Assembly (NCBI RefSeq): GCF_042466665.1
Contig: NZ_CP162102.1
Location: forward strand, 7,595,022-7,659,021
DNA from: Peterkaempfera podocarpi
Lineage (GTDB): Bacteria > Actinomycetota > Actinomycetes > Streptomycetales > Streptomycetaceae
Length of the DNA: 64,000 nucleotides
Direction: 5' to 3'
Made by a program: the position numbers and the translations under genes. Shown one piece after another: positions 2,657-49,974 of this stretch. Position 1 is the stretch's first letter, and each line of letters opens with the position of its first letter. Under the pieces are notes generated by a model, which saw only the letters and a program-made list of their open reading frames with translations, did no database searches and was not told where the DNA came from.

Positions 2657-3856
2657 ATGCGTTTGCGCTCAAGGCTTCTCGGCATGGCCACCGCAGCACT
2701 GGCGGCGATCCCGCTCGCGCTGCTGGGTCCGGCCGTCGGATCCTCCCAGGCCGCAGTGGTCCACCAGGCCACCGCGCACTCCTGCGCCACCGTCAAGCCC
2801 GGGTTCGCCGCCTGCAAGGCCCTGGTCCGCACGGATGTCGTGGCCGTGCAGAAGGCCGCCTCGCCCAACGCCACCCCGTCCGGCTACGGCCCCGCCAGCC
2901 TCCAGTCGGCCTACAACCTGCCCTCCGCCACCGCCGGCGCGGGCCGCACCGTCGCCATCGTCGACGCCTACGACGACCCCACCGCCGAAGCCGACCTGGC
3001 GGTCTACCGCAGCCAGTTCGGCCTCCCCGCCTGCACGACCGCCAACGGCTGCTTCAAGAAGATCGACCAGACCGGCGGCACCACTTACCCGAAGAAGGAC
3101 GGCGGGTGGGCCCAGGAGATCTCGCTCGACATCGACATGGTGTCGGCGATCTGCCCCAACTGCCACATCCTGCTGGTGGAGGCCAAGTCCAGCTCCTTCG
3201 CCAACCTGGGTGCCGCGGTGAACCGCGCGGCCGCGACAGCCGGAGTGGTGGCGATCAGCAACAGCTACGGCGGATCCGACGCCGCGGACTCCACCTACGG
3301 GTCGTACTACAACCACCCGGGTATAGCCGTCACCGCCAGCTCGGGTGACAGCGGCTACGGTGCGAGCTACCCGGCGTCCTCCCACTATGTGACCGCCGTG
3401 GGTGGTACCACGCTCAACACCGCATCCAACTCCCGCGGCTGGACCGAGACCGCCTGGAGCGGCGCGGGCAGCGGCTGCTCCTCCTACAACACCGCCCTCA
3501 CCTCCGCGGCGTCCTTCAGCACCGGGTGCAGCAAGCGCGCCGAGGCCGATGTCTCCGCGGTTGCCAACCCGTCCACCGGCGTCGCCGTCTACGACAGCAC
3601 CGCCTACCAGGGTCTGTCGGGCTGGCTGGTCTTCGGCGGCACCAGTGTCGCCTCCCCCGTCATCGCCTCGGTGTACGGCCTGGCCGGCAACACCGCCTCC
3701 ATCGACAACAACTACCCGTACACCCACTCCTCCTCGCTGTGGGACGTCACCTCCGGCAGCAACGGCAGCTGCCCGACCTCGCAGTGGTGCAACGCCCGAG
3801 TCGGCTGGGACGGCCCCACCGGTCTGGGTACCCCGAACGGCATCGGCGCCTTCTGA
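2657..3856 (+). CDS. Secreted serine peptidase of the S53 (sedolisin) / S8 clan
   Basis: ATG preceded by GGGAG; N-terminal signal peptide MRLRSRLLGMATAALAAIPLALLGPAVGSSQA; motifs TVAIVDAYDDP and SGDSGYGASYPASS...GGTSVASP are typical of the family. Confidence 0.8.
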   Translation: MRLRSRLLGMATAALAAIPLALLGPAVGSSQAAVVHQATAHSCATVKPGFAACKALVRTDVVAVQKAASPNATPSGYGPASLQSAYNLPSATAGAGRTVAIVDAYDDPTAEADLAVYRSQFGLPACTTANGCFKKIDQTGGTTYPKKDGGWAQEISLDIDMVSAICPNCHILLVEAKSSSFANLGAAVNRAAATAGVVAISNSYGGSDAADSTYGSYYNHPGIAVTASSGDSGYGASYPASSHYVTAVGGTTLNTASNSRGWTETAWSGAGSGCSSYNTALTSAASFSTGCSKRAEADVSAVANPSTGVAVYDSTAYQGLSGWLVFGGTSVASPVIASVYGLAGNTASIDNNYPYTHSSSLWDVTSGSNGSCPTSQWCNARVGWDGPTGLGTPNGIGAF

Positions 3857-40211: not shown

Positions 40212-40835
40212 TCAGGGGGTGGGGGCTGGTGTCTGCTGGGGGGTGTGTGCGCCGAGGAGGGCGAGGCAGTTGGCCCAGAGGGTGTCGAGGCGTTGGGCGT
40301 TGTTGTAGAGCTTGGCGAAGAGGACTTGGCCTTCGAGTTGGGCGACGATGGAGCGGGCGGCTTCGCGGGTGTCGGTGAGGGTGATGTCGCCGTGTTCGCG
40401 GGCTTGGGTGATGACGGTGTCGACCATGTCGACCTGTGCTTGGAAGATCTGTTGCAGGCGGGTGCGGATGGCTTCGGTCTGGTTGGACATCTCCAGGGTG
40501 AGGTTGCCGAAGAGGCAGCCGGAGACGGTGCCGCAGGTCTGCTGGCCGGCTTGTTGGGTGGCCTGGGTGGCTTCGAAGAGTTGCCGTAGCCGGTGGAGGG
40601 GGTCGGTGTCGGCGGTGAGGATGTGGGTCCAGGCGGTGCGCTGCTGGGTCCAGTGTTCGTCGATGACGGCGAGGGCGAGGGCTTCTTTGGAGTCGTAGAA
40701 GTAGTAGAAGCTGCCCTTGGGTACGCCGGCGGCCTTGCAGATCTCGGCCACGCCGAGCGCGGAGTAGCCGCGCAGTTCGATGAGCGACTGCGCGGCGGTG
40801 AGGATCTTCTGCCCGGCGTCACTGGTGCGTCCCAT
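40212..40835 (-). CDS. TetR/AcrR family transcriptional regulator with atypical codon usage
   Basis: HTH ILTAAQSLIELRGYSALGVAEICKAAGVPKGSFYYFY; codons strongly C-ending with frequent CAA/GAA, making the + strand G/T-rich. Confidence 0.75.
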   Translation of the reverse strand: MGRTSDAGQKILTAAQSLIELRGYSALGVAEICKAAGVPKGSFYYFYDSKEALALAVIDEHWTQQRTAWTHILTADTDPLHRLRQLFEATQATQQAGQQTCGTVSGCLFGNLTLEMSNQTEAIRTRLQQIFQAQVDMVDTVITQAREHGDITLTDTREAARSIVAQLEGQVLFAKLYNNAQRLDTLWANCLALLGAHTPQQTPAPTP

Positions 40836-40999
40836 GATTCCCCTCCTCGGCCGGGTGCCTGCTCGGTGTCTCCTCGTGCAGGCACGGGGGCTGCGCCTTC
40901 CGGTCCGGGGTGGTCCGGGGGCAGAACCTGCGGATCACCCGGTGCGGCACGGCTGCCGACGGGCCGATGGGCGGCCCGGCCAGGCGCATCGTTCGAGCC

Positions 41000-41089: not shown

Positions 41090-42016
41090 CTACTGTCCGG
41101 CCGGTTCGGGGTCGGGTGACCAGGCGCCCGGACCGTGAAGGACGGGAAGGCCGCCGATCCCGTCGCTCAGTGCCTCGACGGCGGCCAGGACGGCCGGGCG
41201 GACTTCGCCGCGACGCCGGACCAGGGACCATGTCCAGTAGATCCGAGGAGCCACCACGGGGCATGCGACCAGATCCGGCGGCAGCGGATTGCTCACTCCC
41301 TTCGGGGAGTTGATGAGCGGCCGCCGGCTGCGGCGGACATGGTCGAAGAAGGCGGGCCCGGTGATCCCGCCGTCGGAGATGTGCTCGATGCGGACGCCGG
41401 TGTCACGGGCCAGCTGTTCGGCGTAGAGGTTCCAGGACGCCCAGTACGTGCTGTCGTCGTCGACCAGGACGGCCGTGTCCTCCGCGCGTACGTCGCCCCC
41501 GCAGTCCCTGGTGGCGACCGCGTGCAGCCGGTCCGCGCCTATCAGTCGGGCGTCGAGGTCGAGCCGGTCCAGGTCCCGGGCGGGCACCCAGCACGCCGCA
41601 AGGTCGAGGCTCCCGTCGGCGACGCGGGCGGCCTGTGCGTGGGAGGGGGCGATCCAGGGGTCGATGTGGACCTGGGCCACCGCGGAGGTGAGCGCGGTCA
41701 GGTTGGGGGGCAGCCAGTTGACATATCCGAACCGCACGGGTTCGGAGCCGGAGATCTGTGCGGCGCGGCGCCGCAGCTCCTCCGCCTGTTCCAGCAGCGT
41801 GCGGGCCTGCGGCAGCAGAGCGGAGCCGGCCGGGGTGAGCGCCACCGAGCGGCGGTCACGATCGAAGAGTCGCACCCCGAGGTCGCGCTCCAGGGATTTG
41901 ATCTGCTGCGACAGGGACGGCCCGGCGATCAGCAGTCGCTCGGCGGCGCGGCCGAAGTTCAGTTCCTCGGCGACCGCGACGAAGTACCGCAGTTGGCGCA
42001 GTTCCACGAGCGCCAT
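41090..42016 (-). CDS. LysR family transcriptional regulator
   Basis: Internal start MALVELRQLRYFVAVAEELNFGRAAERLLIAGPSLSQQIKSLE (LysR HTH). Confidence 0.75.
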   Translation of the reverse strand: MALVELRQLRYFVAVAEELNFGRAAERLLIAGPSLSQQIKSLERDLGVRLFDRDRRSVALTPAGSALLPQARTLLEQAEELRRRAAQISGSEPVRFGYVNWLPPNLTALTSAVAQVHIDPWIAPSHAQAARVADGSLDLAACWVPARDLDRLDLDARLIGADRLHAVATRDCGGDVRAEDTAVLVDDDSTYWASWNLYAEQLARDTGVRIEHISDGGITGPAFFDHVRRSRRPLINSPKGVSNPLPPDLVACPVVAPRIYWTWSLVRRRGEVRPAVLAAVEALSDGIGGLPVLHGPGAWSPDPEPAGQ

Positions 42017-42430
42017 GCTACGTGCGTGGGGAGGCGTACCCCGGCTGCGGGGAGGCTTCCTCCTGGCGGCGTCGGCCCGCGCGAACCGCCGGTGCCCAGG
42101 CCGAACGCCTTCGTCGGGCACCTTGCGGGAGGCGGGGCCTTCCCATGGCGCAGGGCCTCGGCCGGGGGCGCCTGCGGCGACGTATCGGAGTGTTCCGTCG
42201 CGGAGCTCTGCGCCTGTTGCGGTGCTTCTCAGGCCGTGGTGCTTCTCCGGCCGGGCTCGTGCGGATCGCTGCCGCCACTGCTGCGCCCCGAGGGCATCGC
42301 CGATGCCGCGGCCTGCGCCGTCACCCGGGACCGTCGGGTGGCCGTGAACGAGATCCCTGTGCGCGCCGCCGAGCAGACCCGGTGGCAGGGGGATGGTGAG
42401 GTCCGCCCGCGCCTCGGGTGCGCGAATCCC

Positions 42431-42490
42431 GTCACCGCTTTGACAGGTGACTGACGCCATGCCACTGTAGTCACCACTTGGACAGGTGAC
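42431..42490. promoter_or_regulatory. Two copies of the 21-bp motif GTCACC-N9-GGTGAC (gtcaccgctTTGACAggtgac; gtcaccacttggacaggtgac) upstream of ohr
   Basis: Read in sequence; a third copy is at 48240-48260. Confidence 0.55.
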
Positions 42491-42537
42491 GCCCTGGATG
42501 GTGAGTGCATCCAGGGGAGAATCGGAAAGGCATGACC

Positions 42538-42957
42538 ATGGCTGAAGCGCACTACACCGCCCTTGTCACCGCGACCGGCGAGGGCCGCAACGGCGGCCGG
42601 GCCGAGTCCAGCGACGGTGTGCTCGACCTGACCCTGGCCATCCCGAAGGAGCTGGGAGGAAACGGCGGGGCCACCAACCCCGAGCAGCTCCTCGCGGCGG
42701 GATGGGCCTCCTGTTTCCTGGGCGCGGTCAGGATCACCGCCGCGAAGAGGAAGCTGGCGCTGCGGAATCCGGCCGTCGCAGCCGAGGTCACCCTGCACCA
42801 CACCGCAGGCGACTTCAGCCTCAGCGCCGTCCTCCGGCTCACGGTCGAAGGGGTGGACCAGATCACCGCTGAGGAGCTCGGTGCCGACGCCCACCAGGTC
42901 TGCCCCTACTCCAAGGCGCTCGCCATCCCGGTGACCATCGAGGCGACCGTCGTCTGA
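42538..42957 (+). CDS. ohr: Organic hydroperoxide resistance protein, Ohr/OsmC family peroxiredoxin
   Basis: MAEAHYTALVTATGEGRNGGRAESSDGVLDLTLAIP...C-x...C. Confidence 0.75.
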   Translation: MAEAHYTALVTATGEGRNGGRAESSDGVLDLTLAIPKELGGNGGATNPEQLLAAGWASCFLGAVRITAAKRKLALRNPAVAAEVTLHHTAGDFSLSAVLRLTVEGVDQITAEELGADAHQVCPYSKALAIPVTIEATVV

Positions 42958-43105
42958 AGGCCGGCCGTCGGGGCCCGGTTGACGGATGACCGGCCGCCGC
43001 GGCCGAAGCCGCGGCGGCCACCCGCGCCGTCCTCGTCCTCGACGGGCAGCAGGAGTCACCACCGTTGGGAAACTCGCTGGCGAACCCGGGTTCTCCCGGA
43101 TCAGC

Positions 43106-43675
43106 ATGGGGCGCATGAATGACCAACCCGAGCGATGGAGCAGGGCAACCGTCTACCCCGACATGTGGGTCGACCCGGCCGACGACCCACGCAACAGCGA
43201 CGAGAGCAGCCCGGACGGCGAACTCGCGACGCTCCAGGACTTCCTGACGGGCTATCGCATGACCCTCCGGATGAAGTGCGACGGCCTGGATGCGGAGCAG
43301 CTGGCCCGCCGGTCGGTTCCGCCGTCGACGATGTCGCTGCTCGGCCTGGTCCGGCACCTCGCCGAGGTGGAACGGGACTGGCGGAACTGGATCAGCGACG
43401 GTGACCCGCTGCCGAAGCTGTACGGCGAGAGGGACGCGGACTTCGACGGAGCCGTCGCCGAGCCGGCCGAGGTCGACGCTGCGTACTCCGCTCTGGAGCG
43501 TGAGCAGGCCGCGACCGACGCCGCGCTGGCCGAGTTCCCGGACCTGGGCGAGCGTCCGGGGAAGGGTGAGACCTCGGTTCGGGAGCTGATGGTGCACAGG
43601 ATCGAGGAGTACGCCCGCCACAGCGGGCACGCCGACCTGTTGCGCGAGCGCATCGACGGACGGGTGGGCCAGTGA
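43106..43675 (+). CDS. DinB/DUF664 (mycothiol-dependent-isomerase-like four-helix bundle) family protein
   Basis: LQDFLTGYRMTLRMKCDGLDAEQLARRSVPPSTMSLLGLVRHLAEVERDW. Confidence 0.5.
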   Translation: MGRMNDQPERWSRATVYPDMWVDPADDPRNSDESSPDGELATLQDFLTGYRMTLRMKCDGLDAEQLARRSVPPSTMSLLGLVRHLAEVERDWRNWISDGDPLPKLYGERDADFDGAVAEPAEVDAAYSALEREQAATDAALAEFPDLGERPGKGETSVRELMVHRIEEYARHSGHADLLRERIDGRVGQ

Positions 43676-44356
43676 GGTCGCCTCGGTGACGGCAACGTCG
43701 ATCGACCGGGTTTCACCCTGAAGTCGTCGGCCACAGAACTGGTGCGGGTGGGATGGGGGCTCGTGCCGGTCGTGGGCGGCGCCTGCGGCGTGGGTCATCC
43801 TTCGGCGGGTGACGGCCGCAGGTGCCGTGCCATGTGCGATCGGTGACGATCCATCAGCGCATGGTGTCCGGCCGCAGCGGGACGAAAATGGGCGCCGCCC
43901 GGTGGTCCGCAGTGGCTACCACCGGGCGCCCTGTTCAGCGCTGCGGGCAGCTGCTTGAGCCGGGCGAGGTCGGCCGCAACGGAGGCTTGCGTCAAGCTCG
44001 AACTTGCTGCTGTTCATGCCGGGCCTCCTGCGCAGCGTGAAGACGACCCCGCTGCCGTCATCGCTGCCGTCCTCGTTCGCGACAACCCGCACAGTCGCCG
44101 GCCGCATCATCGCCGGCCCGGTCCGTCACTCTCCGCTGCGACTGCCGGCGCCACGTGCGCTGCGAGCAGCGCACGTGGCGACGAACCTCGGAATCACCTG
44201 CCGGCAGACGATCCACGCGGCGGACACCCGCCGACGACCAGCACGAGTACCCGCACCCCGGTGTGCCCGTCCCGCCCTGAATGCCCCCGGCATGGGTAGG
44301 CGGCAGGGCGGATCACTTCCGGTCCTGGGGGCTCCACTCCCGTCGAGGAGGTCGCC

Positions 44357-45223
44357 ATGAGCAGTCAGGGGCAGAAGGTCGCCGTCATCACCGGTGCCTC
44401 GCAGGGGATCGGCGCGGGCCTGGTCGCCGCCTACCGCAGGCTCGGCTATGCGGTCGTTGCCACATCGCGCGGCATCGCGCCGTCCCCGGATCCGCACATC
44501 CTCACCGTTCAGGGCGACATCGCCGACCCGGACACCGCCGAGCGCGTCATCGCGGCCGGTGCCGAGCGGTTCGGCCGTATCGACACCCTGGTCAACAATG
44601 CCGGGATCTTCATCGCCAAGCCCTTCACCGACTACACCAGGGCCGACTACGACCTGGTGCTCGGTGTGAACCTGAGCGGGTTCTTCCGGGTCACCCAGCT
44701 CGCTGTGGAGCGGATGCTCGAGCAGGGCGGCGGTCACGTGGTGCAGATAACGACCAGCCTGGCCGACCACGCCGACTCCAGGGTGACCTCCGTCCTCGCC
44801 TCGCTGACCAAGGGCGGACTGCAGTCGGCCACGAAGGCGCTGGCCATCGAGTACGCCGCGCGGGGCATCCGCAGCAACGCGGTCGCTCTTGGCACCGTCG
44901 CGACCCCGATGCACCCCGAGGGCGAGGCCGCAGCCCTCGCCGCACTGCACCCGATGGGCCGGCTGGGAGAGGTCGACGATGTCGTCGGCGCGGTGGTCTA
45001 CCTGGAGCAGGCCCCGTTCGTCACCGGCGTCGTCCTCCCCGTGGACGGGGGAAGAGCGCCGGCCGGTGAGCCCGCTCGCGGCTCGGCGGTGCCGATGGCC
45101 TCCGGCCGAGCGGCCGGTCCTCCCGCTGCCGCTGCCGTGCACGGTCCCGGAGGGTGCGGTCGCCGGAGTTGTTGCACCGGGGGCAGCGCCTGGAGCTGCT
45201 CCTTGATCCGTCAAGGGGGCTAG
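44357..45223 (+). CDS. SDR family oxidoreductase; the 3' end may carry a 1-nt indel in a G run near 45045 that would otherwise end the protein at ...VDGGKSAGR
   Basis: GAGGAGG RBS; VAVITGASQGIGAGL, NNAG, Y..K motifs; unusually long low-complexity tail after VDGG. Confidence 0.7.
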   Translation: MSSQGQKVAVITGASQGIGAGLVAAYRRLGYAVVATSRGIAPSPDPHILTVQGDIADPDTAERVIAAGAERFGRIDTLVNNAGIFIAKPFTDYTRADYDLVLGVNLSGFFRVTQLAVERMLEQGGGHVVQITTSLADHADSRVTSVLASLTKGGLQSATKALAIEYAARGIRSNAVALGTVATPMHPEGEAAALAALHPMGRLGEVDDVVGAVVYLEQAPFVTGVVLPVDGGRAPAGEPARGSAVPMASGRAAGPPAAAAVHGPGGCGRRSCCTGGSAWSCSLIRQGG

Positions 45224-45232
45224 AGTGGTGCG

Positions 45233-45703
45233 ATGTCATCCGAAGAGCCGCTGCGTCCCCTCGATGCGAACGAGGAAGCGTTCCTGCGTGCCCTGGGCCG
45301 GGTGATCCTTGCGTTGCCGCGTCTTGTCGACGCGGACATGGTGCGTGAGGCGGGGCTGCCGCTTTCCGAGTACACAGCTCTGCGGCACCTGTCGGAGACC
45401 CCGGAGAAGATGCTGCGGATGAGCGAGCTCGCCTGCGCCTGCGACCTCTCCCTCAGCGGGATGACCCGCGTCGTCATGCGCCTCGAGAAGCAGGGCTGGG
45501 TCGAGCGGGTCAAGTCCCCCGAGGACGGGCGGGGCTGGAACGCCGTACTGACCGGTGCCGGGCTCGCCCGCCTGGAGCGGGCCTGGCCGGCCCATCTGGC
45601 CAGCGTCCGACGGCATGTCATGGACCACCTGAGCGGCCAGGACCTCACCCAGCTCACGGCCACGCTGGAGCGCGTCACCGCAGACCACCCGGTCCGCAGC
45701 TGA
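45233..45703 (+). CDS. MarR family transcriptional regulator
   Basis: LSEYTALRHLSETPEKMLRMSELACACDLSLSGMTRVVMRLEKQGWVER (winged HTH). Confidence 0.75.
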   Translation: MSSEEPLRPLDANEEAFLRALGRVILALPRLVDADMVREAGLPLSEYTALRHLSETPEKMLRMSELACACDLSLSGMTRVVMRLEKQGWVERVKSPEDGRGWNAVLTGAGLARLERAWPAHLASVRRHVMDHLSGQDLTQLTATLERVTADHPVRS

Positions 45704-46055
45704 TCGCTGCCCCCGCACGAGTGGTGCCCGGGGGGCTTTGGTGCGGCCTTCCAGTGCGCATGCGCAGTGTCGGCTGTGGGCGCGCCTGGACGGTCGGCCG
45801 GTGGGGCCTGAGGGGTTTGCGGACGTCGCCGGCACGGAGCGTCCCGGCTGCCCCGACGGCGTCCTGCCGGGACCGCGGGCGAGTTCGCCGGGGGAGTCCT
45901 CGCTGTCGGACGCTGCGGCGCCTGTGGATGCGTGAGCCGGGCGATGGAGGGGTGCGTTCGCGCCCCCTCCGGGCGCTTCTGCCTGCCTGAGCGCCGTCGC
46001 GGCCGGGACTGCGGCCCGCTGCCAGGCCCCCCGGGCGACCCTCTTCCACAACTCC

Positions 46056-46117
46056 TCCTTGACGCGTCAAGGAGTCTGAGGTCTACTGGCGTGGAAGTAC
46101 TTGCTTGACGCGGCAAG
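46056..46117. promoter_or_regulatory. Perfect 16-bp palindrome CCTTGACGCGTCAAGG plus a degenerate second copy GCTTGACGCGGCAAGC 30 bp downstream, between the MarR gene and the FMN reductase-VOC operon
   Basis: Read in sequence. Confidence 0.5.
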
Positions 46118-46159
46118 CTTATTGCTCCGCCGTGTCGCCACATGAAAAGGGGCACCACC

Positions 46160-46720
46160 ATGACCAGGATCGGCATCATCGTCGGCAGCACCCGGCCCGG
46201 CCGCAACGCGGAGGCCGTCGCCCACTGGGTCCACCAGGTTGCCGCACAGCGCGCCGACGCCACGTTCGAGCTCGTCGACATCCACGACTACAAGCTCCCG
46301 CTGCTCGACGAGGCCTACCCGCCGTCGATGGGGCAGTACGCCCAGCCGCACACCCAGGCCTGGGCCGAGAAGATCGCTTCCTTCGACGGCTTCATCATCG
46401 TCACCCCCGAGTACAACCGCTCGGTGCCCGGCGCCCTGAAGAACGCCATCGACTTCCTCTACGCCGAGTGGAACAACAAGGCCGTCGGCTTCGTCAGCTA
46501 CGGCGGCACCGGTGGCACCCGCGCCGTGGAGCACCTGCGCGGGATCGCCGGGGAGCTCCAGATGGCCGATGTGCGCTCCCAGGTCGCCCTCTCGCTCTTC
46601 ACCGACTTCGAGAACTTCACCACCTTCAAGCCCGCCGACATCCAGCACGCCACCCTGACCACCACCCTCGACCAGGTCATCGCCTGGGCCGGCGCGCTCG
46701 CCCCGCTCCGCGCCAACTGA
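46160..46720 (+). CDS. NAD(P)H-dependent FMN reductase (flavodoxin-like fold)
   Basis: MTRIGIIVGSTRPGRN...IVTPEYNRSVPGALKNAIDFL. Confidence 0.8.
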   Translation: MTRIGIIVGSTRPGRNAEAVAHWVHQVAAQRADATFELVDIHDYKLPLLDEAYPPSMGQYAQPHTQAWAEKIASFDGFIIVTPEYNRSVPGALKNAIDFLYAEWNNKAVGFVSYGGTGGTRAVEHLRGIAGELQMADVRSQVALSLFTDFENFTTFKPADIQHATLTTTLDQVIAWAGALAPLRAN

Positions 46721-46795
46721 CACATCCACCAGGGGTGCCGCGCGGTCCGGCCGACGGTGCCCATGTCCGCGCAGCCCGTAGAGAGGACCGGGAAC

Positions 46796-47311
46796 ATGGC
46801 ACAGCCGCAGGGTGAGGAACTGCAGGCGCTCCTGGAGCGCCAGGCCGAACTGAGGCAGCAGTACCTCGTCCCCTCCGCGGAGCGGCAGGCGAGCTCGGCG
46901 CGGGGAGTCCACCACGCCGCGTTCATCGCCAGGGACGTGGAGGAGACCATTCTCTTCTACCGGGATGTCATGGGATTTCCGCTGGTGGACCTGGCGGAGA
47001 ACCGGGACTACCGCGGATCGACCCACTTCTTCTTCGACGTCGGGGGCGAGAACATGATCGCCTTCTTCGACTTCCCGGGGCATTCCCACCCGGAGTTCGA
47101 GGAGGCGGTCGGTGGCAGCCACCATGTGGCGCTGTCGGTCACCGCGGAGACCTTCGACGAGATCAAGGGGCGTCTGGACGAGCGGGGCCTCCCCTACATG
47201 ACGGTGTCGAGCGAGGTCGCACCCAGCCTCTTCGTGGCCGATCCCAACGGACTCAGGCTGGAGCTCATCGGGGAGCCGCTGGGACACGCCCTCGGTGAGT
47301 ACCTGCTCTGA
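46796..47311 (+). CDS. VOC (glyoxalase / bleomycin-resistance / dioxygenase) family protein
   Basis: GAGAGG RBS; HHAAFIARDVEETILFYRDVMGFPLV...HHVALSV. Confidence 0.7.
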   Translation: MAQPQGEELQALLERQAELRQQYLVPSAERQASSARGVHHAAFIARDVEETILFYRDVMGFPLVDLAENRDYRGSTHFFFDVGGENMIAFFDFPGHSHPEFEEAVGGSHHVALSVTAETFDEIKGRLDERGLPYMTVSSEVAPSLFVADPNGLRLELIGEPLGHALGEYLL

Positions 47312-47749
47312 CCGATCAGGGCGACATCCAGCGCCGGCGACCCGGGACCCGCTCAGCGGGTCGCGGGTCGCCGCCGCGTGTGCGCCCGGCGCCCTCGGGC
47401 TCTGCCCGGCACGGCCGGGTGCCGGTCGTCGCGGTGCCGGAAACGCGACGCGACCGCGCCGAGCGGGAGGCGGCAGGCCGGGTTCCGAGGGCCGGTCGCC
47501 GCCCCGGGGGAGTCCGTCGAAGAGCCCGCGACTGCGGACCGTGCGGCGACGACGAGGGCGTCGGCCGTGCCGGCCCCCCGGGTGGGTGGGGAGCGAGCAG
47601 TCGCGGTCATGCCGTCGGCCTTCACCGGCTGCGGGCATGCCGGGCCCTCGTGCTGGTGCGTGTGGTCGGGAGCGCCGCAGTGGTTGGTCCGGCGTGCCGG
47701 GACTGCGGTCGCAGCTCCCGCGAAGCGGTGCCGGTGCCGGGACGCGTCC

Positions 47750-47778
47750 GGCCCGCTCCGAGCAGCTCGGAGCGGGCC
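47750..47778. terminator. Perfect 14-bp stem hairpin 26 nt after the stop of the minus-strand 28-aa ORF
   Basis: ggcccgctccgagc-a-gctcggagcgggcc. Confidence 0.5.
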
Positions 47779-47803
47779 GGTGCGGCCGGTGCTTGGCCGG
47801 TGG

Positions 47804-47890
47804 TCAGAACACCTGGGCGTAACAGCCCAGGGAGACGGCCAGGGCGAGTACCGCGAGTGACACGGCCAGGAGGGGTTTGGGTATACGCAT
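47804..47890 (-). CDS. 28-aa hydrophobic peptide MRIPKPLLAVSLAVLALAVSLGCYAQVF (single TM segment)
   Basis: ATG with GGAGAG RBS 7 nt upstream; 33 nt downstream of the preceding small ORF; followed by the hairpin terminator. Confidence 0.45.
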   Translation of the reverse strand: MRIPKPLLAVSLAVLALAVSLGCYAQVF

Positions 47891-47919
47891 GGGAACTCTC
47901 CAGAGGGTGGAGGACGGGC

Positions 47920-48096
47920 TCACAGGCAGTAGCGGACGAGCCACTCGTCGGAGTTGTAGGTGTCTCGCGCCGGATCGGGCACCGTCGCGGCCTGCTCCTC
48001 GACCATCTCCTCGGGGCGGATGCGCTCCGGCAGTCTGCCGAATCGGGCGCGGCGGGCCGCCTCGGCAGCCTCGGAGGTGTTCTGTGCAGACCGCAT
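47920..48096 (-). CDS. 58-aa hydrophilic protein MRSAQNTSEAAEAARRARFGRLPERIRPEEMVEEQAATVPDPARDTYNSDEWLVRYCL
   Basis: ATG with GAGGAGACG RBS; below the ORF-track size cutoff; found by reverse-strand translation. Confidence 0.45.
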   Translation of the reverse strand: MRSAQNTSEAAEAARRARFGRLPERIRPEEMVEEQAATVPDPARDTYNSDEWLVRYCL

Positions 48097-48239
48097 CGCA
48101 TCGTCTCCTCAGCGCTTCGGCGGCGGGACGGTCCGGCCGGCCGGCGGGGGTGGTGTGGGGCTGCGCTTTCGCGGGTGACCTCACAGCGGGGCACTCGGTG
48201 GCCCGGATGCCCGTTTCATCTGAGAGTGCTCCCCCATTC

Positions 48240-48260
48240 GTCACCTGTCAAGGAGGTGAC
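48240..48260. promoter_or_regulatory. Third copy of GTCACC-N9-GGTGAC, with TTGACA on the minus strand, about 145 bp upstream of the small two-ORF operon
   Basis: gtcacctgtcaaggaggtgac; its reverse complement gtcacctccTTGACAggtgac matches the ohr-upstream copies. Confidence 0.55.
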
Positions 48261-48498: not shown

Positions 48499-49149
48499 TC
48501 AGGCCCGAGCGGCCGTGCGGCTCTCCCATGCCTGCTTCAGCGCCTGGGAGTAGAGCTCGAAGGGCTGCAGCCCGGCCATGCCGTACTTCTGGTCCAGGAC
48601 GAAGAACGGGACGCCGCCGGCGCCCAGTTCGGCGGCTCGCCGCTCGTCCGTCCGTACGTCTGCCGCGTACGCGCGTGAGTCGGCGAGGACCCTGCGTGCC
48701 GCGCTCTCCTCCAGGCCCACCTCCACCGCCAGCGCGACCAGGGTCTCCGTGTCGTAGATGGACCGCTCGTCCGCGAAGTTCACCTGGAAGGCGCGCTCCA
48801 TCAGTCCGGCCTGGAGGCCCTGGCTCTTGGCGAAGTGCAGCAGGCGGTGGAGGTCGAAGGTGTTGCCGTGGACGCGTCCTCCGACGCGGTAGCCGAGTCC
48901 CTCGGAGCGTGCCGCGGTGGCGGCCTGCTCCTCGCGGGCTGTCTGCTGCTCGCGGGTGCGCCCGTACTGGGCGGCGACGGCTTCGATGATGGGTGTGTTG
49001 CGGGACTCGGCCTCGGGGTTGAGCTCGAACGACCGGTGGACCACCTCGACCTGGTCCCGGTGCTCGAAGGCCGCGAGTGCCCGTGCGAAACGGGCTCGGC
49101 CGATGTAGCACCAGGGGCAGGCGATGTCGGTCCAGATCTCGACGCGCAT
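48499..49149 (-). CDS. DsbA/FrnE-like thiol-disulfide oxidoreductase (thioredoxin fold, CPWC active site)
   Basis: AAGGAG RBS; MRVEIWTDIACPWCYIG. Confidence 0.75.
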   Translation of the reverse strand: MRVEIWTDIACPWCYIGRARFARALAAFEHRDQVEVVHRSFELNPEAESRNTPIIEAVAAQYGRTREQQTAREEQAATAARSEGLGYRVGGRVHGNTFDLHRLLHFAKSQGLQAGLMERAFQVNFADERSIYDTETLVALAVEVGLEESAARRVLADSRAYAADVRTDERRAAELGAGGVPFFVLDQKYGMAGLQPFELYSQALKQAWESRTAARA

Positions 49150-49404
49150 GAGTCGGTGTCTCCTTGGTGGCGAGGGCCGCAGGGGCCGCCGGATAGTCGG
49201 TCGGTCCACTATAGGCGACCGACCATCTATAGCGACGCCCGGCGTGGACGGCGCCGGTGGGCGTGATCGCGCCTTGCGTGAGGTGATCGCATTGGCCAAG
49301 GCCCGGCGCCCGGGCGACCGGGGGTGGCGCCCGAACGGTGGAGGCCGGAGCGGTTGCCGGGCGGCCTGCTTGCCCCGCACTCCGTCACCAGCCAAGATGG
49401 TGAC

Positions 49405-49974
49405 ATGATGCATGCCTTCCCCTGCGGCACCCCGATTCTGGACTTCGTGGGGACCTTGCGTGCCCGGCGCAATGCCCGGCCCCTGGAGATGCTCACCTCG
49501 CCGGAGAGTCTTGAGGCATGGTTCCGCGAGTCCGGCCTTGTCGACAGCGGGACGGCCTGCCGACCGTCCGACGTCGCCGAGGCGGTGGCTCTCCGCGAGG
49601 CCGTCCATGCGCTCATCGCCGCCAGGCTGGCCGGTGAGGACTACGACACCGATGCGCTCGACCTGGTCAACCGCACGGCCGGTGAGCCGTCCGCCATCCC
49701 GCAACTCACCGCGGAAGGGCGCCGGGTCCAGGCGACCCCAGAGCAGGCCCTGTCCTCACTCGCCCGCCAGGCCATCGACGTGCTCAGCGGACCGGAGGGG
49801 TCGCTGCTCAAGGAGTGCAGCCGGCCCGAGTGCACACAGATCTACCTGGACCGGTCGCGCGGTGGGCGGCGGGAGTGGTGCGCCATGGACCCGTGCGGAA
49901 ACAGGGTCAAGGCCGCCGCCTACCGCGCCCGCAAGCGGGCGAGCACATCGGCTCCTTCGGTGGCGGCTCGGTAG
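49405..49974 (+). CDS. ABATE + CGNR zinc-finger domain protein
   Basis: C-terminal CSRPECTQIYLDRSRGGRREWCAMDPCGNRVKAAAYRARKR. Confidence 0.65.
   Translation: MMHAFPCGTPILDFVGTLRARRNARPLEMLTSPESLEAWFRESGLVDSGTACRPSDVAEAVALREAVHALIAARLAGEDYDTDALDLVNRTAGEPSAIPQLTAEGRRVQATPEQALSSLARQAIDVLSGPEGSLLKECSRPECTQIYLDRSRGGRREWCAMDPCGNRVKAAAYRARKRASTSAPSVAAR

Follow-up and report, generated by a model that had tools for sequence, protein, structure and literature searches.

A recurrent GTCACC-N9-GGTGAC palindrome at ohr, a small-protein operon and an ABATE-CGNR zinc-finger gene of Peterkaempfera podocarpi points to a candidate autoregulated repressor

Introduction

In a 64,000-nt stretch of the Peterkaempfera podocarpi genome (contig NZ_CP162102.1, positions 7,595,022 to 7,659,021 of the forward strand; hereafter the window), the peroxiredoxin gene ohr stands behind two copies of a GC-rich palindrome, GTCACC-N9-GGTGAC, and a third copy precedes a tiny operon of two open reading frames (ORFs). 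Which protein reads this palindrome, and which genes does it control? An earlier sequence-only reading had taken the copies as the shared site of one transcription factor and had named the LysR-family gene divergent from ohr as the nearest candidate. It had also observed that no OhrR homolog lies next to ohr, and indeed the neighbors of ohr are the LysR gene and a gene of the MST/DinB family (MST, mycothiol-S-transferase). Our comparative analysis points to another gene of the window, at 49405..49974, which encodes a protein with an ABATE domain and a CGNR zinc finger (hereafter the CGNR protein). We consider it likely, judging from sequence, that this protein is an autoregulated repressor that binds the palindromes at ohr, at the tiny operon, and at its own gene.

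Results and Discussion

The palindrome marks three promoters within 7 kb

Five exact copies of GTCACC-N9-GGTGAC are present in the window, against 0.02 expected from dinucleotide-preserving shuffles, none of which reached five; the G+C content of the window is 71.7%. The repeat is real. The sequence-only reading had counted three copies, at 42431, 42470, and 48240, which lie exactly where it placed them, and had missed those at 3329 and 49384, the latter at the start of the CGNR gene, 1.1 kb from the copy at the tiny operon. Its chance expectation of 0.004 was lower than that of the shuffles, though either figure is far under the observed count. It had put the copy at 48240 about 145 bp upstream of the two-ORF operon, in agreement with the 144 bp that we find between this copy and the ATG at 48096, and its TTGACA faces the minus strand.

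Operator matrices built from the sites of other genomes were used to scan the window. The sites at 42431, 42470, 48240, and 49384 score 23-38 bits (37.8 bits for 42431, 37.9 bits on the minus strand for 48240, and 27.6 bits for 49384), and in the remainder of the 64 kb no site reaches 12 bits. Allowing up to two mismatches gave 16 matches in the window vs 7.3 expected, with no further site standing out. All four operator-class sites are intergenic and fall within 7 kb (Table 1). The copy at 3329 was rejected as an operator, as it lies in coding sequence and scores below 12 bits, and was treated as a chance match.

Table 1. Coordinates of the operators, promoter elements, and genes discussed in the text (window numbering)
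Feature	Position	Strand	Description
Fifth palindrome copy	3329-3349		within coding region reading VTASSGDSGYG
LysR-family regulator	41090..42016	-	
O1 of ohr promoter	42431..42451	+	exact match GTCACCGCTTTGACAGGTGAC; GTCACC-GCT-TTGACA-GGTGAC; -35 TTGACA at 42440-42445
Putative -10 of ohr	42463..42468	+	CACTGT; 17 nt past TTGACA, 1 nt before O2
O2 of ohr promoter	42470..42490	+	exact match GTCACCACTTGGACAGGTGAC; starts 18 nt past O1 end; covers predicted start
ohr	42532..42957	+	Ohr-family peroxiredoxin; Pfam OsmC; NCBI start two codons later
MST/DinB family	42986..43675	+	
Terminator-like hairpin	42992..43019	+	perfect 12-bp stem, 4-nt loop, 35 nt past ohr stop
Short-chain dehydrogenase (SDR)	44357..45223	+	
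MarR family	45233..45703	+	
NADPH-dependent flavin mononucleotide (FMN) reductase	46142..46720	+	
Glyoxalase family	46757..47311	+	
Terminator-like hairpin of tiny operon	47748..47780		perfect 16-bp stem just past ORF2; putative function
ORF2	47804..47890	-	28-aa hydrophobic peptide, MRIPKPLLAVSLAVLALAVSLGCYAQVF
ORF1	47920..48096	-	58 aa; conserved actinobacterial family, predicted target gene; G+C at third codon positions 0.88
Tiny-operon promoter	-35 48251..48246; putative -10 48228..48223	-	TTGACA, 17-nt spacer, CACTCT
Single operator of tiny operon	48240..48260	-	exact match GTCACCTGTCAAGGAGGTGAC; GTCACC-TCC-TTGACA-GGTGAC
Thioredoxin-fold gene	48499..49149	-	DsbA-like by eye; weak NCBIfam matches only
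Fourth operator copy	49384..49404	+	exact match GTCACCAGCCAAGATGGTGAC; abuts ATG of CGNR gene
ABATE + CGNR zinc-finger gene	49405..49974	+	189 aa; NCBI start at second ATG, 188 aa

The gene behind the two tandem operators is a genuine ohr. Its product scores 135.7 bits against the Ohr subfamily model TIGR03561 (cut-off 88.85), is 100% identical to a protein named "Ohr family peroxiredoxin" (P0121), and carries both catalytic cysteines (...GWASCFLGA... and ...HQVCPYSKA...). Transcription is predicted to start near 42475, inside O2, which would give a leader of about 57 nt to the ATG. A terminator-like hairpin follows the gene, and ohr is therefore probably monocistronic. At the tiny operon, where one operator encloses the -35 hexamer, the start is predicted near 48216, which leaves a leader of about 120 nt before the ORF1 start codon at 48096.

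An RNA-level function of these elements was also considered and appears unlikely. Rfam gave no credible match between 41000 and 50500 (best E = 0.23), and neither the ohr leader (z = -1.1) nor that of the tiny operon (z = +0.55) folds better than shuffled sequence. O1 and the operator of the CGNR gene would stay outside the transcripts, since both lie upstream of the predicted starts. A perfect 9-bp inverted repeat (CCCTGGATG-N7-CATCCAGGG) lies directly past O2 in the ohr leader, at 42492-42516; in L135 from Streptomyces, the locus of the closest ortholog, no such hairpin is evident.

The same operator precedes stress-related genes in other actinobacteria

We scanned one genome per species (species representatives) with the pattern GTCACCNNNTKGACAGGTGAC, which gave at least 120 loci; 126 sites were listed, and the counts in this section refer to these unless another sample is named. 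Among the loci listed, 118 belong to Actinomycetota and represent at least 18 genera: Streptomyces, Actinacidiphila, Kitasatospora, Nonomuraea, Streptosporangium, Actinoplanes, Dactylosporangium, Pseudonocardia, Saccharopolyspora, Amycolatopsis, Umezawaea, Actinocrispum, Kribbella, Mycobacterium, Microbacterium, Mycetocola, Leifsonia, and Arthrobacter.

These loci share a common design. O1 encloses the -35 hexamer TTGACA, the operator follows the consensus c-GTCACC-nGT.....ACn-GGTGAC-g, with a C before and a G after the palindrome, and a conserved cA(A)nnT occupies the -10 position about 11 nt past O1. At 59 of the sites O1 is followed, most often after 18-19 nt, by another palindrome (consensus GTCACCAGTTGAACCGGTGAC). 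This second operator occurs at all five Ohr promoters, and its spacing is 18-19 nt at every Ohr, DinB, glyoxalase, and secreted-hydrolase promoter among the matches. With its 18-nt spacing between O1 and O2, the ohr promoter of the window is a textbook case of this arrangement. The proposal of the sequence-only reading that the palindrome is one transcription-factor operator overlapping a -35 hexamer is supported. The link that it had drawn between ohr and the tiny operon also held up, since the motif precedes homologs of both in other actinobacteria.

The genes downstream of the operator fall into a limited number of families. Members of the ORF1 small-protein family are the most frequent (37 sites), followed by secreted alpha/beta hydrolases of two kinds (21), DinB/MST-like proteins (10), MFS transporters (9), glyoxalase/VOC proteins (6), Ohr (5), and MsrA (2, plus 4 divergent), while an epoxide hydrolase, a GTP cyclohydrolase II, and an allene-oxide-cyclase-like protein occur at 1 site each. 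A CGNR gene is divergent from the site in 41 cases, and 36 of these genes start no more than 10 bp from the motif; no regulator family other than CGNR recurs near the motif. Most sites that have no recognizable downstream target are the CGNR genes' own promoters, as in the window. In two Nonomuraea loci (L030 and L036), ohr and the small gene follow one another downstream of one dual operator. Sites of the same genome are often 8-60 kb apart (L006/L009, L046/L047, L072/L075, L010/L083, L008/L034, and L052/L115), which indicates that regulon members tend to cluster, as they do in the window.

Loci that were selected by protein similarity, without TTGACA in the selection, also show TGTCAA. In metagenome loci chosen solely by similarity to the CGNR protein of the window, an operator lies against the start codon in 10 of the 10 usable cases. 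Across all loci collected, an operator with at most two mismatches abuts the start codon in 68 of 75 CGNR homolog genes, and most of the others have an offset operator or variant arms. Ohr-selected loci have operators in four of five groups. In the closest group, Streptomyces L135 and L136 (Ohr 81% identity), ohr is divergent from a CGNR gene, and the ohr promoter of L135 repeats the O1-18 nt-O2 layout and the -10 geometry of the window. In the Amycolatopsis loci L137 and L138 (Ohr 69% identity), ohr and a CGNR gene again diverge; a single operator-like site precedes ohr, and the operator that abuts the start codon of the CGNR gene has variant arms. In S. chartreusis, ohr lies opposite an operon of hydrolase, small-protein, and CGNR genes, and in S. 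davaonensis (L143) a small gene, ohr, another small gene, a glyoxalase gene, and a disulfide oxidoreductase gene are clustered with three exact operators. Within sequence data, these comparisons establish the sites, their promoter geometry, their conservation, and a near-obligatory linkage to CGNR genes.

The CGNR gene carries the operator against its start codon

The CGNR protein matches PF07336 (ABATE) over residues 8-130 with 103.3 bits (cut-off 24.4, E = 2e-29) and PF11706 (zf-CGNR) over residues 135-177 with 64.9 bits (cut-off 24, E = 5.5e-18); both domains thus exceed their gathering thresholds and stand in the family's order, ABATE before zf-CGNR. Its cysteines C138, C143, C159, and C164, followed by GNR, align with the zinc ligands of structure 3H0N, and neither the four cysteines nor the CGNR motif varies among 52 homologs or in the alignment derived from the loci. 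An AlphaFold2 model of the protein has a mean predicted local distance difference test score of 83.8, with low confidence in the zinc-finger part, and a Foldseek search of the PDB with this model returned 3H0N as the sole match at E <= 0.001 (E = 1.9e-6, template modeling score 0.54). An extra N-terminal cysteine (F-x-C-G) is confined to a Streptomyces-like clade.

The operator of this gene (GTCACC-AGC-CAAGAT-GGTGAC on the plus strand) runs up to the base that directly precedes the ATG at 49405. A putative -10 element, CAAGAT at 49393-49398, lies within the operator, 17 nt from a putative -35 element, TTGCCC at 49370-49375, and the transcript would be leaderless, starting at the ATG itself. 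The TTGACA that other operators carry on the opposite strand has decayed to TTGGCT in this copy, and the arrangement TTGCCC-17-CAAGAT-6-ATG has been kept, which assigns the copy to autoregulation. It is probably not a divergent promoter of the thioredoxin-fold gene 234 bp away.

The same arrangement recurs in other genomes. In gene orientation, the CGNR-side operators follow the consensus GTCACC-TGT-CAAnnT-GGTGAC and then the start codon. All 36 CGNR-abutting operators have the base that gives the final T of CAAnnT, which 24 of 85 other sites share (Fisher p = 5e-15). In 34 of the 36 the operator runs directly into the start codon (29 GTG, 5 ATG), and a cTTGC element stands at a constant distance, 17-18 nt upstream of CAAnnT. 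A -35 TTGC, a -10 CAAnnT, 6 nt, and a +1 that coincides with the first base of the start codon make up a leaderless-promoter pattern, and this design of an operator abutting a leaderless start codon may be found in many actinobacterial CGNR paralogs.

Two variant loci bear on how the site might be read. In L127 (538-) all three operators have the arms GCACC..GGTGC, and in L128 (1793-) every operator of the locus has the arms TAAC..GTTA; the CGNR proteins of both loci have substitutions in the otherwise conserved C-terminal helix KAAAYRARKR. These two cases hint that the C-terminal helix reads the operator arms, and they offer a candidate specificity code that draws on two cases only.

A proposed mechanism of repression and its inducer

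On the basis of these data, we infer that the CGNR protein binds the sites and represses transcription, and we likewise infer the nature of its inducer. The protein is probably a dimer, which fits both the palindromic site and the reported dimeric state of its structural relative Jann_2411. One dimer would occupy O1 and enclose the -35 hexamer of ohr, and a second would occupy O2, 18 nt downstream, over the transcription start. At the tiny operon, the CGNR protein would occupy the single operator around the -35 hexamer, and at its own leaderless promoter it would cover positions -21 to -1, including the -10 element, leading to autorepression. Because the operators cover the -35 hexamers, the start at O2, and the regulator's own -10 element, the mode of action would be promoter occlusion together with negative autoregulation.

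An inducing signal would then detach the protein from its sites. Three sensors are conceivable: the ABATE domain, by binding a ligand; the Zn(Cys)4 center, by oxidation; or the clade-specific N-terminal cysteine. The regulon holds Ohr, MsrA, glyoxalase/VOC proteins, DinB/mycothiol-S-transferase-like proteins, epoxide and other alpha/beta hydrolases, and MFS pumps, a content that makes an organic peroxide, an electrophile, or an oxidized lipid-type compound the most plausible signal; epoxides and the oxidation of methionine in proteins are suggested as well. These genes can reasonably be called a "peroxide-stress regulon." The orphan ohrB1 gene of S. avermitilis, whose product was not among the homologs listed, is barely induced by tert-butyl hydroperoxide or H2O2 (PMC6034001), which bears on the inducer neither way. 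A bolder idea, which we regard as possible and rather doubtful, is that ABATE-CGNR proteins form a new class of stress-sensing repressors, of which the actinobacterial subfamily would functionally replace OhrR against oxidants, electrophiles, and oxidized lipids. The commonest member of its regulon would be the small protein of about 60 aa, accompanied in the window by the 28-aa peptide, and the finger or the N-terminal cysteine would both read DNA and sense redox state.

Alternative readings and points that weigh against the assignment

The LysR-family protein would be a conventional choice for the regulator. Its gene is the nearest classical regulator gene upstream of ohr and encodes HTH_1 and LysR_substrate domains, and the T-N11-A boxes that LysR proteins bind are likewise interrupted palindromes. 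However, its start lies 415 bp from the first operator, in a 515-bp gap between the LysR gene and ohr, and the pair shows neither the short shared intergenic region nor the recurrent pairing of LysR-type divergent genes. LysR homologs occur in only 3 of the 120 motif loci listed, none adjoining a site, and are absent from the recurrent gene clusters around the sites; in NCBIfam the protein reaches only sub-threshold scores, against a mixture of LysR models that includes none for peroxide control; and in the protein-selected samples the motif tracks CGNR genes, not LysR genes. The candidate favored by the sequence-only reading is therefore very improbable as the cognate regulator. A different possibility is that an unlinked regulator (an OhrR-type MarR protein, the MarR protein encoded at 45233..45703, or a TetR protein) reads the palindrome and that the CGNR gene is merely a member of its regulon. 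Ohr genes are classically under OhrR (PMC6034001), a MarR gene sits 2.3 kb from ohr, and association alone cannot separate a regulator from a gene that is always regulated. Yet the OhrR boxes of Streptomyces are AT-rich (GCAACTNAATTGC and ACAATTNAATTGT; PMC6034001) and none is near ohr: with up to three mismatches, ACAATTNAATTGT has 0 matches and GCAACTNAATTGC has 6 vs 13 expected, none of them in 42017-42531. The MarR protein matches no OhrR model in NCBIfam, its homolog occurs in 1 of 148 loci (L074), and its cysteines, at positions 68 and 70 only, are deeper than the peroxide-sensing Cys25 of S. avermitilis OhrR, so it was rejected as a hidden OhrR. No other regulator family recurs near the sites, and the placement of an operator against the start codon, seen in 68 of 75 CGNR genes, is the hallmark of a local regulator that controls its own gene. 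The divergent pairs of a CGNR gene with a DinB, MFS, or ohr gene, in which a single intergenic region filled with operators serves both genes, bear the same mark, and in L127 and L128 the operator arms vary jointly with the CGNR C-terminal helix. We regard control by an unlinked protein as unlikely.

Only slightly less probable is that the CGNR protein does bind, and acts as an activator or dual regulator. Where a promoter has a single operator, as do the tiny operon and 29 of 29 long-type small-protein genes listed, the site is centered on the -35 hexamer, a position that some activators also use; weak -10 elements, as found here, are likewise a common trait of activated promoters. A perfect -35 TTGACA, however, usually needs no activator, and both the placement of O2 over the predicted start at ohr, DinB, glyoxalase, and hydrolase promoters and the operator over -21 to -1 of the regulator's leaderless promoter, -10 included, fit repression. 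At the far end of the scale lies the idea that the copies are chance matches or a nonregulatory repeat, such as a REP-like element or transposon ends, which we take to be extremely improbable. In high-GC DNA the Val-Thr and Gly-Asp codon pairs GTCACC and GGTGAC are frequent, and the exact copy at 3329 probably arose in this manner, by chance; but four sites are intergenic and have fixed promoter geometry where 0.02 copies are expected per window, and such sites are conserved before the same gene families in at least 18 actinobacterial genera.

Repression by the CGNR protein remains our preferred reading, and several points weigh against it. The assignment of the operator to this protein is guilt by association, if of a tight kind. 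Since the scan pattern already contained TTGACA, the -35 reading of O1 is partly built in. A scan for E. coli-type promoters found nothing; its consensus is that of E. coli, to which the -10 elements CACTGT, CACTCT, and CAAGAT are weak matches, and the -10 assignments consequently draw solely on positional conservation. The JGI/COG name of the family is "predicted RNA-binding Zn ribbon-like protein." Finally, operators were found in only two of five ORF1-selected loci, which makes the small-protein gene a frequent, not universal, regulon member.

The tiny operon encodes a conserved small protein

ORF1 had been described as unannotated, a label that needs correction, since NCBI lists it as a hypothetical protein. 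Its family comprises at least 152 clusters, all named "hypothetical protein," with the pattern A..AR.ARFG.LPERI...E...Y..DEWLVRYCL. Residues R18, F19, L22, P23, P42, D50, W52, and R55 are invariant in the alignment, and C57 is nearly so. Neither ORF1 nor its 152 homologs contain a Pfam domain or match an NCBIfam model; one long-type homolog has a weak, sub-threshold VapB-like match (E = 0.014). In the AlphaFold2 model of ORF1 an extended segment connects two helices and no compact fold is formed (predicted template modeling score 0.26), which suggests that the protein acts by binding a partner.

ORF2, which has no family match, is probably a small membrane peptide cotranscribed with ORF1. The family divides into short-type genes, which end ...EWLVRYCL and are followed by an ORF2-like peptide, and long-type genes (...YSCLALDLGL), which are not. 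An ORF of 26-30 aa ending GCF.Q[VL]F follows the short-type gene in L046, L055, L084, L093, L146, and L147 (SCLLGIF in L093). As a guess, ORF1 and ORF2 could serve a membrane-associated, cysteine-dependent stress function.

Two further observations concern the long-type genes and the operator-free homologs. The leaders of the long-type genes in L005, L010, L035, L063, L067, L070, L097, and L102 are conserved 40-75 nt past the operator, where a variable hairpin is followed by CCACGATCGACGAAGTGGAG; CCAC and GTGG could pair over the ribosome-binding site, and the conserved leader may be a translational control element. In Micromonospora and Catellatospora (L144 552-1677 and L145 1-1671), an ORF1 homolog without an operator ends an operon with an NmrA-like protein, and the Catellatospora operon adds a pyridine-nucleotide disulfide oxidoreductase; these operons hint at a redox-linked role of the small protein.

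Comparison with known systems

The repressor-operator logic of a stress regulon is familiar from OhrR-ohr; the regulator class would differ here, and the small-protein member is new. The OhrR-ohr systems of Bacillus subtilis, Xanthomonas, S. coelicolor, and S. avermitilis offer several parallels: a palindromic operator overlaps the promoter of ohr, ohr and the regulator gene often diverge (in L135 and L137 the divergent gene is a CGNR gene), the regulator apparently controls its own gene, and repression with derepression under stress is the likely logic. In contrast to OhrR, which is a winged-helix MarR protein, the proposed regulator combines an ABATE domain with a treble-clef zinc finger. 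Its operator is GC-rich, unlike the AT-rich OhrR box, and its regulon would be much wider, taking in the small protein, MsrA, DinB/MST proteins, glyoxalases, hydrolases, and MFS pumps.

The closest structural precedent is Jann_2411 (DUF1470, 3H0N), which was reported as a dimer and predicted to be a ligand-responsive DNA-binding regulator (PMC2954205); nucleic-acid binding was proposed for its basic treble-clef finger, and ligand binding for the cavity of its ABATE domain. The window protein shares its two-domain architecture and its zinc ligands, C-x4-C ... C-x3/4-C-(G/Q)NR. Jann_2411 is alphaproteobacterial, however, and has only 22% identity to the window protein over the fold-search alignment; unlike it, the actinobacterial subfamily can be assigned an operator, a promoter geometry, and a conserved regulon. 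The Streptomyces anti-sigma factor RsrA and Hsp33 are zinc-thiolate redox switches. The CGNR protein resembles them in that a Zn(Cys)4 center would sit in a protein controlling oxidative and thiol-stress genes, including MsrA-type repair enzymes; RsrA and Hsp33 differ in binding no DNA operators, and redox activity of the CGNR finger is hypothetical. The OsnR protein of Corynebacterium glutamicum was considered as a relative and rejected, as it is an unrelated helix-turn-helix protein.

In the open full text searched, the 2009 structure paper was the sole study of the ABATE-CGNR family itself, with other papers only mentioning the family, and nothing relevant was found on the motif GTCACC-N9-GGTGAC; the PDB held no further ABATE-CGNR relative and no DNA complex. 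Database names for the family are all generic, although it is widespread, with more than 700 clusters of close relatives. Within the open literature searched, no earlier proposal of an operator or a regulon exists for the family, and the present one would be the first. If the proposal is true, the ABATE-CGNR family gains its first function, the control of "orphan" ohr genes without OhrR in actinomycetes is explained, and the actinobacterial stress response acquires a new small-protein component. The window is a convenient test case, with one regulator gene, three promoters within 7 kb, and a 21-bp operator for which the effects of mutations can be clearly predicted.

Neighboring genes and side features

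The region between the LysR start and O1 (42017-42430, about 415 bp) has no assigned feature and contains only short, low-confidence ORFs. The MST/DinB gene downstream of ohr probably starts near 43100, since the long ORF called for it opens inside the hairpin at 42992-43019 and residue 82 is the first of its Pfam domain. The SDR gene is followed 9 bp on by the MarR gene (44357-45703), amid FMN reductase, glyoxalase, and MST detoxification genes, and this pair is probably a separate small regulatory unit.

Two other inverted repeats were observed. A 38-bp imperfect palindrome at 49192-49230 (ATAGTCGGTCGGTCCACTA / TAGGCGACCGACCATCTAT), 43-81 nt upstream of the thioredoxin-fold gene, is probably the site of a different regulator. 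At 40855-40885, an 11-bp inverted repeat (GTGCCTGCTCG-N9-CGTGCAGGCAC) begins 20 nt upstream of a TetR-family gene (40212..40835, minus strand) and may be that gene's own operator.

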